A DNA stretch of 64,000 nucleotides, taken from Candidatus Poribacteria bacterium. Lineage in GTDB: Bacteria > Poribacteria > WGA-4E > WGA-3G. The notes beneath the pieces were generated by a model that ran no database searches, was not told the DNA's origin, and saw only the letters and a list, made by a program, of their open reading frames with translations. The translations under genes were made by a program, and so were the position numbers. Of the stretch, positions 52,194-61,704 are shown in pieces. Where the stretch lies: contig OZ242029.1 in assembly GCA_965205015.1 (NCBI GenBank), positions 512,001 through 576,000 on the forward strand, in the 5' to 3' direction. Numbering within the stretch: position 1 is the first letter of the stretch; every line of letters begins with the position of its first letter.

Positions 52194-54347
52194 TCATTGG
52201 TCCTTGGTTTCTTCGGGAATACGGAAGCGTAGCTCGCTATCGGTCGATTCGATGGTAAAGCCACTCCAACCCCACCGTTTGTGTTTGCCTTTCCCGCGGG
52301 TATATATCACCTGCGTCAAAAGTTCATCGGTGATCGTGATGTCGTAACGCCTTTCAACCGTCTCATTTCCGACAGGAATCTGCAACCGCTGAATCGGTTT
52401 CTCACCATTCGCAATCAGATTTATCTCCAACGGTTCAGGTTCCTCTCCTTCATCTGCGCTGAAATAGCATGTCACTTCGTATGTTCCATTCGGAAGTGCG
52501 ACTCGGAAGACCCCATCTTCTTTCCCCAAAATGCTATCCCCGTAAGGTTGTGATACCTCAGATTCCCTTTGTGAGTCTTCACGCGCTGACACTGTTAACC
52601 AGCCGTATTTTCCATCGGTGTAAGCCGTATCCACAGACACAGGGATATGTCCCGATGCTGTCTGACCCTCCTCAGGCTGCATATCAAAGGCAAGTACAGT
52701 TCCTCCACCCCACATTTGCGGATCCGGTGCTGCGCGCTTGCGACGATAGACCCGATGGTAGTCGTTAGAATGGATAAGGTCATATTCTTCTTCCAAACCG
52801 GCGACATCACCATACTCCGTCCGCCAAATGATGGCGAAATCAGCAGGCAATTCTTTCTGCTTATAGCGTAGTGGGAAATGGTCCGTATTTGCCTCGTAGT
52901 TGTCAAGATAGGCGATCCCCATCTTCACTGCCAGTAGACACTCGGTGTGCCCAAAGGGTTCAACGTATTTGGACTCAAAACCGAGTGAATCAGACAGACC
53001 GTTCCATTCTCCAGGCTCGCTCGTAAGAATCGTATTTTTTTCATACAAACCCATCGATGAGTGGACGTTGGCGATGTCCCGATTCAATAAGGCATACGTG
53101 TGGACATTGTAACCGAGATGCCATAGGGACAGGGCAATGATAACTCCCGCTACGCCATAGTTTACGTACCGATGGAGGTAGTAGGCAGACTCCGCTCTGC
53201 CGTTCACCCGGTTGACAGCAAAAAATGGCAGCAACACGAGGAATATGTACAGATGAAATCGATCGTTTATCCACCCTCCGCTATAGCCAGACCAAGGGGC
53301 TATGTAATACATCGCAGTGATGAGGACTGACATAATCAGAAACCCATCCATTTGCGTCACAACGCGCATCCAGAGCCGTTCGCCCGTCTCTTTCCATTCC
53401 TCCGATTTATAGAATTGGGAACACTGCCGGATTCTATTGATAACTGTGAGTACAAAAACGATAGCAAGAAAAACCAACAACACGCGTCCGATCAGGATAT
53501 GATCATCTCGAAAAGCGACCAAGGATTTCATGGAGAAGAAGTAGTCATTTAGCCACTCAAAGCCTTTATGGTTGCTATCTGTCCCGTGAGCATTGGAAAG
53601 GTAAAAGTAGTAGGAAAATAGGATAAAATACGCAGGTATAAGACTCCCTACGAAGGTCAGCACCGGTTTGAGCGTCACCACACCCGCCCTAAGTCGGTGC
53701 ATGAGGGGTTGTGATGTTTCCTTATGTCCCCATACCCCTTGTAGGACCTCGTAACCCGATGAGAAAAGGGCAAAGAACGTCAGGGACATGACAAGCAACG
53801 CATAGGAATGGTAGTGGGTGAGATAGGTCGCCAACAGCAATATGTAGATGATCACAATGTTTGTCAATCGGAGTTTATCCTTGACTCTCCACCAATAGCC
53901 CATCGTGAAGAAAAATAGGGACATACTGAGGACAAAGTTATAGAACCCCATGTGAAGCAGATAGTTGTAGGCGAAAAGAAACCCAAGCAGTCCAAAGACT
54001 ACGTTCCTCTTTGCGATACCGTTGAGGAAATAGAAGAGGGAGAGCGGTAGGAGCCCGATACAGAGCGTCAGCACTATCTTTTCGCAAACGAGTGGCGGAA
54101 AGACGTACAACAGGACGACAAGGAGCGCGTGGGAGGTCCAGTTCGGGAAGATCGTGGCGTTCAGTTCGTAGACTTCGCGCAGACGATAGTTTTCGTGCTT
54201 ATGGTACTCCTTCACCACGTATGAGTTGTAGATATGACTGAGCCCATCCTGCGTTGGGAAATACTTGAAACCCCAGACGGGTAGAAGATGTAGCACCAGC
54301 ATCACAAAAACTGTAATATATCCAACAGATAACAGACGTGTTTTCAT
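52194..54347 (-). CDS. Polytopic membrane protein (GT-C-like) with a C-terminal galactose-binding-like domain
   Basis: About 10 TM segments, TQDGLSH, PNW, GFYNF; C-terminal FDM...Y....YGW...F.V.LPNG.Y.V. Confidence 0.65.
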   Translation of the reverse strand: MKTRLLSVGYITVFVMLVLHLLPVWGFKYFPTQDGLSHIYNSYVVKEYHKHENYRLREVYELNATIFPNWTSHALLVVLLYVFPPLVCEKIVLTLCIGLLPLSLFYFLNGIAKRNVVFGLLGFLFAYNYLLHMGFYNFVLSMSLFFFTMGYWWRVKDKLRLTNIVIIYILLLATYLTHYHSYALLVMSLTFFALFSSGYEVLQGVWGHKETSQPLMHRLRAGVVTLKPVLTFVGSLIPAYFILFSYYFYLSNAHGTDSNHKGFEWLNDYFFSMKSLVAFRDDHILIGRVLLVFLAIVFVLTVINRIRQCSQFYKSEEWKETGERLWMRVVTQMDGFLIMSVLITAMYYIAPWSGYSGGWINDRFHLYIFLVLLPFFAVNRVNGRAESAYYLHRYVNYGVAGVIIALSLWHLGYNVHTYALLNRDIANVHSSMGLYEKNTILTSEPGEWNGLSDSLGFESKYVEPFGHTECLLAVKMGIAYLDNYEANTDHFPLRYKQKELPADFAIIWRTEYGDVAGLEEEYDLIHSNDYHRVYRRKRAAPDPQMWGGGTVLAFDMQPEEGQTASGHIPVSVDTAYTDGKYGWLTVSAREDSQRESEVSQPYGDSILGKEDGVFRVALPNGTYEVTCYFSADEGEEPEPLEINLIANGEKPIQRLQIPVGNETVERRYDITITDELLTQVIYTRGKGKHKRWGWSGFTIESTDSELRFRIPEETKDQ

Positions 54348-54420
54348 TACCTCTATAACCTCACCAATACATTTACCTGGACCTCATCAAATAGATTTTC
54401 GCCTTGGTTCTACCGCCTTT

Positions 54421-54594
54421 TTATTTTACCCCACTCGATGGGTAGCAGCTTAGGTAAATCTCGCGGTTAAGATCACGGGCAGACACAAATGCGATTTTGG
54501 CAGTTCCCGGTGCCTGTGCCGAGATAGGGCAAACCGCTCCGTATAATAAGACAACACTTAACACGAAGCAGAACAATAGAGATGAACCTTTCAC
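54421..54594 (-). pseudogene. N-terminal fragment of a TolB/PD40-like exported protein
   Basis: GGAGG RBS, GTG start, signal peptide, AQAPGTAKIAFVSARDLNREIYL, then early stop; compare 62694 (AEAPTSPKIAYSSWRDGNMDIFL). Confidence 0.78.
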
Positions 54595-54649
54595 CGAATT
54601 ACCTCCAAGAGATCATGAAAAAACAAATTTCCTTTTCCGTCTGAACTCC

Positions 54650-54678
54650 ATTCTAATAGATTTTCGCTTTTGTTTCAA
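54650..54678 (-). promoter_or_regulatory. Sigma70-type promoter for the TolB-like fragment
   Basis: TTGAAA-17 nt-TAGAAT on the minus strand. Confidence 0.55.
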
Positions 54679-54765
54679 GGGAATAGTCGGTTTTGGAATC
54701 CCAATGCTTTAGCTTTGGGAGGAAAATCCGCCCTCTTGGAAAGGACCAAAACGTTCATTTTTCCC

Positions 54766-54795
54766 TTGACATTTGGTCCGAAAGTGTGTTAGAAT
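54766..54795 (+). promoter_or_regulatory. Sigma70 promoter of tnpB
   Basis: TTGACA-18 nt-TAGAAT with extended TG. Confidence 0.65.
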
Positions 54796-54799
54796 TAGA

Positions 54800-54881
54800 G
54801 TATCAGGTTGGCAAGTATTATCAGCGTTACCGCTTGGTAACGTACTTGCCTCCCACTGATAAGGGGATAAACACCTGATAC
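54800..54881 (+). ncRNA. Candidate structured RNA leader upstream of tnpB
   Basis: Three nested perfect helices plus a fourth complementary pair (see findings). Confidence 0.5.
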
Positions 54882-54891
54882 CTGATATACC

Positions 54892-56121
54892 ATGAAATTA
54901 ACTTTTAAGTATCCTGTGTATCCTACCAGAACACAGGAACAAACAGTGTTAGCGTGGCTTGACCACCTGTGTGACCTTCAGAACTCTGCTCGCCACGATC
55001 GCAAGGTAGCGTTAGAAGTTGAAGATCGTTTCGTCACGCTCTCCGAACAGCAAGACAAGTTAACAGCCGCTCGTGAGAAATATGACGACTTCCGAGAAGT
55101 GCCACAAGATTTCCAAAATCACGCCCTGCGAAGAAACGATAAAGCCTTTACTGCCTTCCGCAAACGTTGTAAAGAAAACGCTGCGAAAAAAGGGTATCCT
55201 CGCTACAAAAAGCGTGTCCGTTCTCTGACGTGGAGCCTTCGCAAATATACGAAAGTGGTTCGTCGAAAGACCAAAGACGCTGAAAAACAGACGCTACGCG
55301 TTCGCGAGAATCCAATCATAGAAACGCCCTTTCGCCATAACCGCTTGAAAGTGCCAAAGTTGGGTGAAGTCAAGATACGCATGCACCGCCCGCTTGAAGG
55401 GGATCCCAAAGAAGTTACGCTCGTGAAAAAAGCAAGTGGCTGGTATGCTCATATTACCTGTGAACTCCCCGATACTCCGAAAGTTGAACCGACAGCTGCG
55501 ATCGCTGTTGACGTTGGCACAACGCACTATCTGACGACTTCCGAAGGCGAAAAGGAAGATAACCCGCGCTGGTATCGCCAAGCAGAAGGACTGCTCCACA
55601 AACATAATCAGACGATGGCCCGCCGTAAAAAAGGGAGCAACCGCTGGTATAAAGCCGTGCATGCCGTTGCCTTGCACCATGAGCGAACTGCTAACAAACG
55701 CAAAGACTTTATCGGTAAACTCGTCTACAAACTTTTTCATCATTGCGGAAAGCACGTCCTCGTTGCGGAGGACTTGCAAACCTCTAACATGGTTCAGAAT
55801 AAGCACCTCAGCAAGAGCATTTCGGATGCGTCTTGGGGTATCTTCTTTCAGTGGTGTGGGAACATAGCCGAAAGAGACGGTTTCCACGTCCACCAAGTGA
55901 ATCCCAAAAACACTTCGCAAACCTGCTCTGCTTGTGGTAAGAAGTCGCCAAAGAAACTCTCTTTAGCGATACGGACCTTTGATTGTAGTTTTTGTGGCAC
56001 TTCGTTAGACCGAGACCACAACGCTGCGATAAACATACTTTTGCGGGCGGCTTGCGCCCATCGTGGAGAGCGTTGGGTTACCAACCTCTGTGAAACGAGA
56101 AACTTACCGGTAGACCGGTAG
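54892..56121 (+). CDS. tnpB: RNA-guided endonuclease TnpB
   Basis: KY..YPT, RuvC D (AVDVG), E (AEDL), CSAC/CSFC zinc finger, DRDHNAAIN. Confidence 0.95.
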   Translation: MKLTFKYPVYPTRTQEQTVLAWLDHLCDLQNSARHDRKVALEVEDRFVTLSEQQDKLTAAREKYDDFREVPQDFQNHALRRNDKAFTAFRKRCKENAAKKGYPRYKKRVRSLTWSLRKYTKVVRRKTKDAEKQTLRVRENPIIETPFRHNRLKVPKLGEVKIRMHRPLEGDPKEVTLVKKASGWYAHITCELPDTPKVEPTAAIAVDVGTTHYLTTSEGEKEDNPRWYRQAEGLLHKHNQTMARRKKGSNRWYKAVHAVALHHERTANKRKDFIGKLVYKLFHHCGKHVLVAEDLQTSNMVQNKHLSKSISDASWGIFFQWCGNIAERDGFHVHQVNPKNTSQTCSACGKKSPKKLSLAIRTFDCSFCGTSLDRDHNAAINILLRAACAHRGERWVTNLCETRNLPVDR

Positions 56122-56190
56122 GCTTGTTAACACTCTTAACAAGCCAAAGTCTTTAGACTTGGGTACATTGACTACCTCAAATCTTACAGA
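56020..56190 (+). ncRNA. Predicted omega/reRNA of TnpB 1; bounds approximate
   Basis: Expected at the 3' end of tnpB through the right-end hairpin; local hairpins such as TACCGGT-AG-ACCGGTA. Confidence 0.5.
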
Positions 56191-56316
56191 TTCCCAAACT
56201 TGCTATCTATTCCCAATTGTGATAAACTACTCTCAAGCTTAATGCGTCTGATATTGAAAAATATGAGGATGAACATGTCCCAGAATTGACGGAAATATAG
56301 CCTATGGGGGGCAGGG

Positions 56317-56895
56317 ATGGAAATCCCAAGTATTGTTATTATCGGTGATGATTCACAGGCAGGTACCTATATCTTGCGAATCCGCCTTAAAGAGAAGACC
56401 GCATTAAAATTTGGGAGATTCAAGAAAGGGAAACTTATTTCATTACCCGCTGGTGATTACCTTTACATCGGCTCTGCACTCTCGGAGAAGGGAGCCATTT
56501 CGTTAGCACGGCGGCTGATCCGGCACGCAACACGGCGTAACCCTCAGCCACCACATCCTATCCGAGAAAAAATGATAGACCGATTCAGTGAATGCGGTTT
56601 GGGACCTCGCGACCTATTACCAAAACGTGGTAAAACCCTACACTGGAACGTTGATTTCCTCTTGGATCTGCCATCGGCGGAGCTCGTCGCTATCCTTGCT
56701 ATCCGTTCCGCTGAACGCTTGGAGAAGAGTCTTGCCAAGCGACTTGAACAGGATCCACGCACGGAGATTATCGAACCCGGGTTAGGTGCAAACGATGCTC
56801 CAGGTAACACACACCTGTTACGCATCCGATCAGATAGCATGGGGTGGGCATCTCTCACAGACAAAGTAAGAGGGATTCTGAAAGAAACACCTTAG
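56317..56895 (+). CDS. DUF123 / GIY-YIG-like nuclease family protein
   Basis: GTYIL, G.Y.YIGSA, RRL.RH, LHW.VD.LL, PG.GA.D....THL. Confidence 0.8.
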   Translation: MEIPSIVIIGDDSQAGTYILRIRLKEKTALKFGRFKKGKLISLPAGDYLYIGSALSEKGAISLARRLIRHATRRNPQPPHPIREKMIDRFSECGLGPRDLLPKRGKTLHWNVDFLLDLPSAELVAILAIRSAERLEKSLAKRLEQDPRTEIIEPGLGANDAPGNTHLLRIRSDSMGWASLTDKVRGILKETP

Positions 56896-60368: not shown

Positions 60369-60560
60369 CACCTTGTGATACTACCCAACGCCTAAAGGCG
60401 TGGGCTTCGGTTTCATAGCGATTGCGGTTTTCGCTCAAGCGTCCACCGTCTTACTATCGCTCCACCAGCAGGCTCTTATTCCGAATCAGATCGGTTTTAT
60501 CTGGCTTAGGTCCAGGGTACCCCAGCCCGCAAAATGTTTATCGCAGCGTTTATATCTCTG
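60355..60560 (-). ncRNA. Predicted omega/reRNA of TnpB 2; bounds approximate
   Basis: About 130 nt between the stop codon and the TCAC right end; the guide would begin AAGGTGCTACCGCTCC. Confidence 0.55.
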
Positions 60561-61672
60561 TCGTGGTGTGAACCACAGTCAGAACACGTCCACTCCCTAT
60601 CTGAAAGTGTTAGGGTTTTGTTGTGATAGCCACAATCCGAACAGGGTTTTGTTGTGGCTTCCCAACGTCCCGCTTTCAATAACGTTTTACCATATTTGGC
60701 ACATGTCCATTGGAGGATCCATGAGAACTCACCAAAAGCAAGGTCAGAGATTTTTCGTCCCCACAGGCGTTTCATACCCGATAGGTTCAGCGTCTCAATC
60801 GCAATCTTATCGTATCTACGCACAAGGCGGAGTGCCAACTTGAAAAACCAATCTCGTCTTCTATTGGCTATATCCTTATTGACGCGTGCGAGGTGTCGTT
60901 TGGCACGAAACCAGCCATTAGAAAGATACTGCTTACGAGAGAGTGTCTTGTTTGCGGAACAAATTTCATTGAGACTTTGCTTGAAAAACTCTGGTGAGGC
61001 TATCTTGATACCGTCTGAAAGGGTCAGAAACGTCTTCATACCGAAGTCTGCCCCTGCCGCATTACTGGTCAGTGGGAGTTTTTCGGCGGGTTCTGAACCT
61101 TCACAACTGAGATACAAGTGATAGTCGCCCACAGGATCACGCTTGATTGTTACCGTCTTTATCGTTCCAGTCCATTCACGGTGTTTCCAAAACGTGAACG
61201 ACTTCTTCAGACACTTGATATGAATGCGATTGTCTTTTATCTCATAACCTGCTTGCGTGAACGTCAATGAGTTATACTTGTGTTGTGGCTTTATCTGTGG
61301 CTTGCCGACTTTACGCGGTGATAATCCTTTCTTTTTAGCATCAAGATAGTCAAAGAACTTTTCATAGCCGAGATGGATACGCTTGGCAACCTGTTGTATA
61401 ACTTGGCTCGGTAGTTGTTTCCAATGCGGTTTCGTCCGACGCTTTAACTTCGTTATATGCGAGCAGATACGCCCAAAGGACGCATACTTGCCATAGATAC
61501 GATAATAGCGTCTCTGCAATAAAAGCAAGTGGACATGCACGCCATGCAAGTCGTCAAGCAGATTCCCCATCTGTATGAGATTCGACTGATGATAAAACTC
61601 ATATTTTTCAGTTTTCATGGATTCCCACGTATCACGCCTTTTACCCCAGCTAAAGCATTGGGACCTGACGCC
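60375..61672 (-). mobile_element. IS200/IS605-family solo tnpB element 2; left end approximate
   Basis: Right end GAAGCCCACGCCTTTAGGCGTTGGGTAGTATCAC; left hairpin TCCCAATGCTTTAGCTGGGG; no tnpA. Confidence 0.85.
60506..61618 (-). CDS. tnpB: RNA-guided endonuclease TnpB
   Basis: RuvC D (GADFG), E (IETL), two CSDC motifs, DRDINAAIN. Confidence 0.95.
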   Translation of the reverse strand: MKTEKYEFYHQSNLIQMGNLLDDLHGVHVHLLLLQRRYYRIYGKYASFGRICSHITKLKRRTKPHWKQLPSQVIQQVAKRIHLGYEKFFDYLDAKKKGLSPRKVGKPQIKPQHKYNSLTFTQAGYEIKDNRIHIKCLKKSFTFWKHREWTGTIKTVTIKRDPVGDYHLYLSCEGSEPAEKLPLTSNAAGADFGMKTFLTLSDGIKIASPEFFKQSLNEICSANKTLSRKQYLSNGWFRAKRHLARVNKDIANRRRDWFFKLALRLVRRYDKIAIETLNLSGMKRLWGRKISDLAFGEFSWILQWTCAKYGKTLLKAGRWEATTKPCSDCGYHNKTLTLSDREWTCSDCGSHHDRDINAAINILRAGVPWT

Positions 61673-61704
61673 CGAAGTCCCGTAAATGAGGCGGTTCAGT
61701 TAAT

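Follow-up and report, generated by a model that had tools for sequence, protein, structure and literature searches.

TnpB, the ancestor of Cas12 and a widely used compact genome editor, has a well-studied 3' guide RNA. IS200/IS605 elements transpose as single strands using hairpins, and the put RNAs of phage HK022 are cis-acting antitermination RNAs. According to Ellis et al. 2015 (PMC4513863), structure in the 5' untranslated region (5'UTR) of IS200 tnpA represses translation, and a second report describes the TnpB guide RNA as being processed from the tnpB mRNA (PMC10278001). A full-text literature search returned no description of a TnpB 5' leader or of a dedicated 5' control RNA. The nearest likeness to the leader described here may be the IS200 arrangement, since both are structured 5' leaders in the IS200/IS605 family and, by analogy with PMC4513863, both would limit translation initiation of a transposon protein. 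The IS200 leader controls tnpA, however, whereas the leader here precedes tnpB. The IS200 leader is a single stem-loop, and stem-loops of this type hide the Shine-Dalgarno (SD) sequence or the start codon; in contrast, the leader here folds into a three-way junction that contains a pseudoknot and is closed by a helix with two registers; it lacks an SD sequence, leaves its AUG unpaired, and covers positions -12 to -4 in its distal register. For the antisense small RNA of IS200, the only counterpart sought was a minus-strand promoter, and a consensus promoter scan found none within positions 54800 to 54891. With the TnpB omega RNA (reRNA), the leader shares the property of being a structured RNA of the same element and transcript. 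The omega RNA, however, overlaps with both the tnpB 3' terminus and the element's right end, carries a flank-derived guide, and co-evolves with TnpB, whereas the leader lies at the 5' end and does not show such co-evolution.

The leader was found in a 64,000-nucleotide stretch of Candidatus Poribacteria DNA, referred to below as the window (Table 1). Judged by its ends and gene content, the element that carries it is a tnpB-only (IS1341-type) member of IS200/IS605 of ~1.5 kb, in which the leader lies between the element's own promoter and tnpB. The left-end hairpin is kept with compensatory changes 5' of related tnpB genes and has the same form as the right-end hairpin; the leader sits ~100 nt inside it. 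When the 3' ends of 30 related loci were compared, homology between copies ended after ...TACATTGAC at position 56172, so the guide would start at position 56173. The sequence-only reading had held that the leader is separate from the 3' guide RNA, and its position between promoter and ATG, with the right end at 56172, agrees with this view. A DUF123 (PF01986) gene begins ~145 nt past the right end of the element (56317 to 56895, plus strand). That reading had also noted the lack of a clear SD sequence at ATG 54892, and rightly so: no SD-like tetramer precedes this ATG, whereas an SD-like word was present at -20 to -4 in 29 of the 43 window open reading frames (ORFs) of at least 200 amino acids, a count that heuristically takes the first ATG as the start.

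Table 1. Coordinates of the element, its promoter, and the parts of the leader (positions in the window)
Feature	Position	Strand	Description or basis
Left-end subterminal hairpin	54700..54719	+	CCCAA...TTTA...TTGGG; flanks 54688-54733 extend it
Sigma-70-type promoter	54766..54795	+	-35 TTGACA 54766-54771; N18 spacer with TG; -10 TAGAAT 54790-54795
P1 5' strand	54800..54808	+	Fold and covariation
P2, enclosing hairpin P2a	54810-54817/54843-54850 (P2); 54825-54831/54836-54842 (P2a)	+	P2a loop GCTT; fold and covariation
Pseudoknot 5' strand (7-nt P2 bulge)	54818-54824	+	Complement of 54856-54862
P3	54852..54866	+	Pairs 54852-54854/54864-54866 (CCC/GGG); alignment of leaders
Pseudoknot 3' strand (P3 loop)	54856-54862	+	Complement of bulge 54818-54824
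Junction J3/1 (AUAAAC)	54867..54872	+	UAAA invariant in 33-sequence alignment
P1 3' strand, proximal register	54873..54881	+	-19 to -11 from AUG
P1 3' strand, distal register	54880..54888	+	-12 to -4 from AUG; tandem 7-nt-shifted duplicate
tnpB, 409 aa	54892..56121	+	Pfam OrfB_IS605 2.9e-17; Cas12f1-like TNB 1.8e-20
Right-end hairpin (56144-56163) and element end	56144..56172	+	Ends ...TACATTGAC; 3' ends of 30 loci compared

The three nested helices that the sequence-only reading had listed between positions 54800 and 54891 (P1, P2, and P2a) were all present when the sequence was checked. The RNA from 54790 to 54900 was predicted to fold at -42.8 kcal/mol, compared to -21.7 ± 3.3 kcal/mol for 200 dinucleotide-preserving shuffles, none of which folded as well as the real RNA (z = -6.38); the same leader folded as DNA gave -22.6 kcal/mol (z = -5.96). 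The three strands of the junction are 1, 1, and 6 nt long. The pairing of the P2 bulge with the downstream loop, which the sequence-only reading had suspected of forming a pseudoknot, was borne out by compensatory changes that produced three to four Watson-Crick pair types at each variable position. Its proposal of an alternative fold was correct insofar as an alternative pairing exists, although this pairing differs from the one proposed and is instead a second register of P1. Similarly, the word CTGATA does occur three times in the leader of the window (54856 to 54861, 54875 to 54880, and 54882 to 54887), but only the two occurrences in the tandem P1 3' strands are general among copies. The third, in the pseudoknot strand, was rejected as part of a switch and is a coincidence, since few other copies resemble it and the rest have unrelated pseudoknot sequences. 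A tRNA-like reading of the 5'-end helix and the ACCA that follows was likewise dropped, given that ARAGORN detected 0 genes in positions 54600 to 55100 and that the junction differs.

A scan of species-representative genomes yielded 80 loci encoding relatives of the window TnpB, and nearly all of the closest relatives among them belonged to Candidatus Poribacteria. The 200 nt upstream of tnpB in the 31 closest full loci contained the same leader with obvious compensatory changes. In a MAFFT alignment of 33 leaders that was not fitted to any structure, 93.6% of the cells were paired and 18 of the 34 pairs changed on both sides; the covariation score was 0.42, as opposed to 0.16 for shuffled alignments (0 of 500 scored as high) and 0.04 to 0.07 when partners were slid by 1 to 3 columns. 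A model-fitted alignment of 74 leaders gave 95.0% paired cells, double changes in 29 of the 34 pairs, and a score of 0.49 versus 0.18. The covariance model consists of the nested helices, with the pseudoknot and the distal register of P1 left out, so the pseudoknot counts are independent of the model fit; both of these parts covaried equally well despite being outside the alignment model. The pseudoknot helices had 95.3% and 95.8% of their cells paired, and each of the four variable pseudoknot pairs was represented by three or four Watson-Crick types (e.g., UA 25, AU 17, CG 17, and GC 6). Double-sided changes were seen in 7 of 7 P2a pairs and 7 of 8 P2 pairs, and P2a contained 46 G-U cells in the 74-leader alignment, which indicates that the structure belongs to the sense strand. 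Conservation and covariation, the natural touchstone for the sequence-only reading, were thus found in all helices, the pseudoknot included. From this comparison of sequences, we consider it very probable that a genuine 5' leader RNA, conserved and pseudoknotted, exists here.

P1 has two 3' strands, tandem duplicates offset by 7 nt, and each of them shows covariation with the 5'-terminal strand of the RNA. The proximal register was paired in 91.1% of the cells and the distal register in 90.2%, with double changes in 6 of 9 pairs in each case; when the distal partner was swapped into the whole structure, 94.8% of the cells were paired. Using at least 7 of 9 pairs in each as the cutoff for calling registers, 69 of 74 leaders had two with a 7-nt offset, and in 61 of 74 the positions were exactly -19 and -12, counted from the A of the AUG. 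The trinucleotide ACC directly preceded the AUG in 44 of 74 leaders. The energies of the two registers differed by no more than 1 kcal/mol in 53 of 74 leaders, while the proximal register was better by more than 1 kcal/mol in 12 and the distal register in 9, based on nearest-neighbor values for RNA starting at column 3 that take no account of the pseudoknot or of the longer junction in the distal state. The AUG itself is unpaired in both registers; proximal pairing leaves the 10 nt before the AUG free, and the distal helix ends 3 nt before it. The duplication is not strictly required, since L016, an intact copy, has only one 3' strand for P1. The same copy has a left-end hairpin that is inverted relative to other copies (locus positions ~1300 to 1345).

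The promoter upstream of the leader in the window (TTGACA-N18-TAGAAT) matches 11 of 12 consensus positions. Promoters with at least 9 of 12 matches were found directly 5' of the leader, in the same place, in 71 of 73 related loci, and 19 of the 73 had perfect 12/12 matches. The distance from the -10 box to leader column 1 was exactly 4 nt in 69 of 73 loci, and, given this promoter geometry, transcription is predicted to start at column 3 (A54802), such that the RNA would begin inside the P1 5' strand. Pairs 1 and 2 of P1 were the least conserved, with 21 to 30 and 7 to 10 of 71 unpaired, respectively. No terminator or known processing site was found 3' of the leader in the window sequence. Contigs from sponge and coral metatranscriptomes cover the leader (e.g., 258 nt over positions 54868 to 55125 with 1 mismatch); these are Logan contigs from four metatranscriptome runs that carry no RNA ends, strand, or usable depth and in which DNA carry-over is possible.

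With the covariance model, a single copy was detected in the 64-kb window, and every related tnpB likewise had one in front of it. Five complete Poribacteria genomes contained 33, 23, 53, 36, and 40 leader-model matches (185 in total, as matches rather than copy numbers), and the same genomes contained 50, 24, 59, 88, and 54 matches to the TnpB TNB domain (275 in total). Within the Poribacteria phylum, 77 of 150 sampled genomes had a match, for at least 1,056 matches altogether, with no more than 28 scored in any one genome. Conversely, matches were detected in 0 of 151 genomes sampled from the phylum to which a Phototrophicaceae genome belongs and in 0 of 5 searched genomes of other phyla carrying a related TnpB, and the other-phylum loci of the first scan (L050 to L080) had no leader-model match before tnpB. 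Among the genomes searched, the leader is therefore restricted to one phylum. A metagenome pattern scan returned 33 matches, of which 20 were strong leaders and 1 was weak, and a scan of a viral collection returned 3 matches, all of them leaders; neither scan bears on habitat. Three leaders (L170 to L172; 66 to 86 bits) are on two contigs of 52 to 54 kb that are listed as viral in IMG/VR.

Searches with Rfam 15 gave two chance-level hits in window positions 54300 to 56700 at E values up to 10, located outside the leader or on the other strand, and no hit on the leader in six further loci at E values up to 1. A match to an already characterized motif, the other finding that would have undercut the sequence-only reading, was thus not seen, and the leader, as tested against Rfam 15 as the one sequence-family collection, is apparently a new RNA family and a member of no catalogued one. 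The left end of another copy (L009, 1274 to 1371) gave a subthreshold hit to the HgcC family RNA (RF00062; 34.4 bits against a gathering cutoff of 50, E = 1e-4), and the HgcC family may model an IS200/IS605 end.

In 30 of 30 loci sampled from the best genome matches, a TnpB match was found downstream of the leader: 18 at 72 to 93% identity to the window TnpB, 2 at ~53%, 1 truncated, and 9 at 25 to 33%. A further 28 ORFs, from 8 of these 9 divergent loci and 20 lower-scoring hits, were identified by Pfam as TnpB in 26 cases; of the two exceptions, one was a tnpB with a frameshift, and in the other a solo leader preceded an unrelated ORF. This solo leader (L125, 201 to 294; 72.6 bits) has no tnpB, and the 153-amino-acid ORF near it has no Pfam match. 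The leader is carried by at least 6 N-terminal TnpB types and two left-end types. For the 68 of 74 loci with ORFs of at least 330 amino acids, mean leader identity was 66% (maximum, 92%) in the 1,036 protein pairs with <35% identity, compared to 72 to 74% in pairs with 70 to 90% identity. By this measure, leader identity is decoupled from TnpB identity, and the leader does not co-evolve with its TnpB. Given this decoupling and the presence of the same leader before TnpB clades that are 25 to 33% identical, the earlier suggestion of a second RNA component is unlikely.

The five complete genomes all encode Y1 transposases, and the leader model gave 0 matches near tnpA in 6 loci. The one tnpA locus that was read (L164) had the same kind of promoter followed by a short tnpA leader with AAGG, and its tnpB overlaps the tnpA stop codon as ATGA. 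As far as these 6 tnpA loci without a leader, one of them read, can indicate, the leader occurs where tnpB has lost translational coupling to tnpA. From these associations, we take the leader to be a promoter-plus-UTR module of stand-alone tnpB that is tied to no particular TnpB or guide RNA and that either is exchanged among resident elements or is strongly constrained.

A second subfamily of leaders precedes Poribacteria TnpB proteins that are ~40% identical to the window TnpB. The covariance model gave weak matches, in the same position, to 9 of these leaders, and all 20 that were examined had the same helix order with other sequences, two P1 registers with an offset of 8 or 6 nt, and a bulge/loop complement of 4 to 8 bp. 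This complement was at least 5 bp in 19 of the 20 and comprised at least 8 different sequences; it was called by a per-sequence script, for which the shuffle control is weak at 4- to 5-bp matches, because the MAFFT alignment of this subfamily was too poor for column-wise pseudoknot counts. The junction sequence differs between the two subfamilies. An AUG is present at J3/1 in most subfamily 2 leaders, yet it is not conserved in subfamily 1, and an upstream mini-ORF was rejected for this reason.

Several copies depart from the common architecture. The window contains a second TnpB gene on the minus strand (60509 to 61700; 370 amino acids), of another clade, from which the promoter and the greater part of the leader have been lost: its left-end hairpin is fused to the last ~25 nt of the leader, comprising part of J3/1 and the P1 3' strand, which is followed by the ATG. 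This loss looks like a deletion between short G-rich repeats. Three subfamily 2 copies in one genome (L044, L045, and L060; ~1440 to 1503) have lost the whole leader through a precise deletion that runs from the -10 box almost to the ATG, and L039 and L040 have an internal leader deletion. An extra hairpin of ~25 nt is found in the P2a loop of L113 and L120, which marks the tip as a variable-length region, while L073 and L036 have insertions in junction J3/1.

What the leader does can be approached from its geometry. The best reading, which we hold tentatively as just short of an even chance, is that this 5' leader is bistable and gates the access of ribosomes to tnpB. On this account, positions 54800 to 54891 would be the 5' untranslated leader of a tnpB mRNA that is made from a very strong internal promoter and begins within P1. 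The RNA folds as a compact three-way junction (P1, P2-P2a, and P3) locked by a 6- to 7-bp pseudoknot, and two tandem partners of equal quality are available to its 5'-terminal strand for closing the junction. Pairing with the proximal partner (-19 to -11) would leave the start region open, whereas pairing with the distal partner (-12 to -4) would hold the usual SD site in a helix and occlude it. The two-state helix would then gate 30S access, so that TnpB is translated little or only under certain conditions, even as the strong promoter goes on supplying the long transcript from whose 3' end the guide RNA is derived. A role in translation initiation is suggested by the fixed AUG spacing, by the lack of an SD sequence in a host that uses them, and by the presence of the leader only where coupling to tnpA is missing; a two-state device is suggested because the registers are isoenergetic and covary. 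Since two states of equal energy would, by themselves, reduce translation only by about half, real regulation would need an effector, and candidates for tipping the balance between registers include a host factor, a ligand, the ribosome itself, and folding kinetics. The leader probably limits the amount of TnpB nuclease made. Taken together, the observation behind the sequence-only reading is confirmed and its interpretation is supported in part: cis regulation of TnpB translation is kept as the best reading, with the effect on translation and its direction being predictions from the structure.

The gating model resembles translational riboswitches in that a covarying, pseudoknotted junction is closed by P1 and in that mutually exclusive P1 registers would decide whether the region 5' of the AUG is free. 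The leader differs from riboswitches in being without a known ligand, in preceding only tnpB, a transposon nuclease gene with no metabolic or transport theme, in using a duplicated P1 3' strand rather than an anti-SD sequence as the alternative partner, and in having a junction sequence that is not conserved between the two subfamilies.

A somewhat unlikely alternative dispenses with switching altogether: the leader could act constitutively, either by keeping the triphosphate end in a helix and protecting it against 5'-end-dependent decay or by put-type antitermination, so that a poorly translated 1.3-kb transcript reaches the right end and yields guide RNA. Like the put RNAs, the leader is a folded RNA right behind a strong promoter and would act in cis on its own transcript; its architecture is different, however, and its fixed AUG spacing points to translation. 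The location at the very 5' end, with RNA predicted to start inside P1 and a constant 4-nt spacing to the -10 box, is explained equally well by this alternative, which also fits the consensus-strength promoters and the lack of an SD sequence, as this implies weak coupling of translation to transcription. Two redundant partners could keep the 5' end paired while a ribosome opens the distal one, and the guide RNA is processed from the tnpB mRNA (PMC10278001). Yet neither protection nor processivity needs the register positions to be fixed relative to the AUG, as they are in 61 of 74 leaders, and both leave the isoenergetic registers unexplained. It is quite improbable that the leader is instead cut off to become an abundant small RNA acting in trans, with targets in the host or in transposons. 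The 23 to 53 matches per genome behind consensus promoters and the metatranscriptome contigs covering the leader would suit such an RNA, as would the processing of the IS200 5'UTR into regulatory RNAs reported in PMC5435999, but the exposed pseudoknot and P1 strands vary between copies of one genome, arguing against a common seed, no terminator or known processing site follows the leader, and contig depth cannot rank the parts of a gene.

We strongly doubt that TnpB itself binds the leader, whether for autoregulation or as a second RNA subunit. TnpB does bind structured RNA, the leader accompanies tnpB alone, and cleavage in vitro is inhibited by part of the AmaTnpB mRNA, although that part, at nucleotides 825 to 875 of the mRNA, is outside the 5'UTR (PMC10278001). 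Against binding, the same leader precedes TnpB clades that are 25 to 33% identical and have different right ends, its identity changes little between protein pairs with <35% and those with 70 to 90% identity (above), and same-clade tnpB genes coupled to tnpA have no leader. A 10-nt complementarity between leader positions 54805 to 54814 and the guide-RNA region at 56078 to 56087 was rejected as well: it does not extend to other clades, as 9 of 10 leader-bearing loci of other or more distant clades lack the word in their 3' regions and its sole other occurrence (L088) falls in the right-end hairpin. Pairing of a left-end GGGAGG with the leader CCUCCC in read-through RNA was discarded because a second left-end type without GGGAGG has the same leader. 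A novel self-cleaving ribozyme, for example one that trims the leader off the mRNA, is very improbable even though the compact pseudoknotted junction with invariant unpaired bases has the look of one. Rfam holds the known ribozyme classes and had no family matching the leader in the searches above, the hammerhead core is unlike junction strands of 1, 1, and 6 nt, and the CTGATA-like words are variable rather than conserved; the earlier description of the leader as ribozyme-like thus found no support. Finally, the stability of the DNA fold would be in keeping with a structure that forms in single-stranded DNA and serves TnpA-mediated transposition, but this is extremely improbable: autonomous tnpA-tnpB elements of the same left-end type have no leader, the structure is well inside the left-end hairpin and spans from 4 nt past the -10 box to the AUG, and P2a alone has 46 G-U cells.

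A bolder form of the gating model, which we regard as unlikely, is that the leader represents a new class of bistable sensor RNAs, riboswitch-like or responsive to a host factor, that ties nuclease output to a physiological signal in Poribacteria. If true, the output mechanism would be unusual, with the 5' end of the mRNA sliding between tandem partners such that a helix occupies or vacates the position of the missing SD helix. The leader family is very abundant, and as a module it is shared among unrelated TnpB clades. Its two-register helix, in which both pairings covary, provides a clean example of a designed bistable RNA, and the leader offers a natural 90-nt system for how transposons separate the supply of guide RNA from the supply of nuclease.
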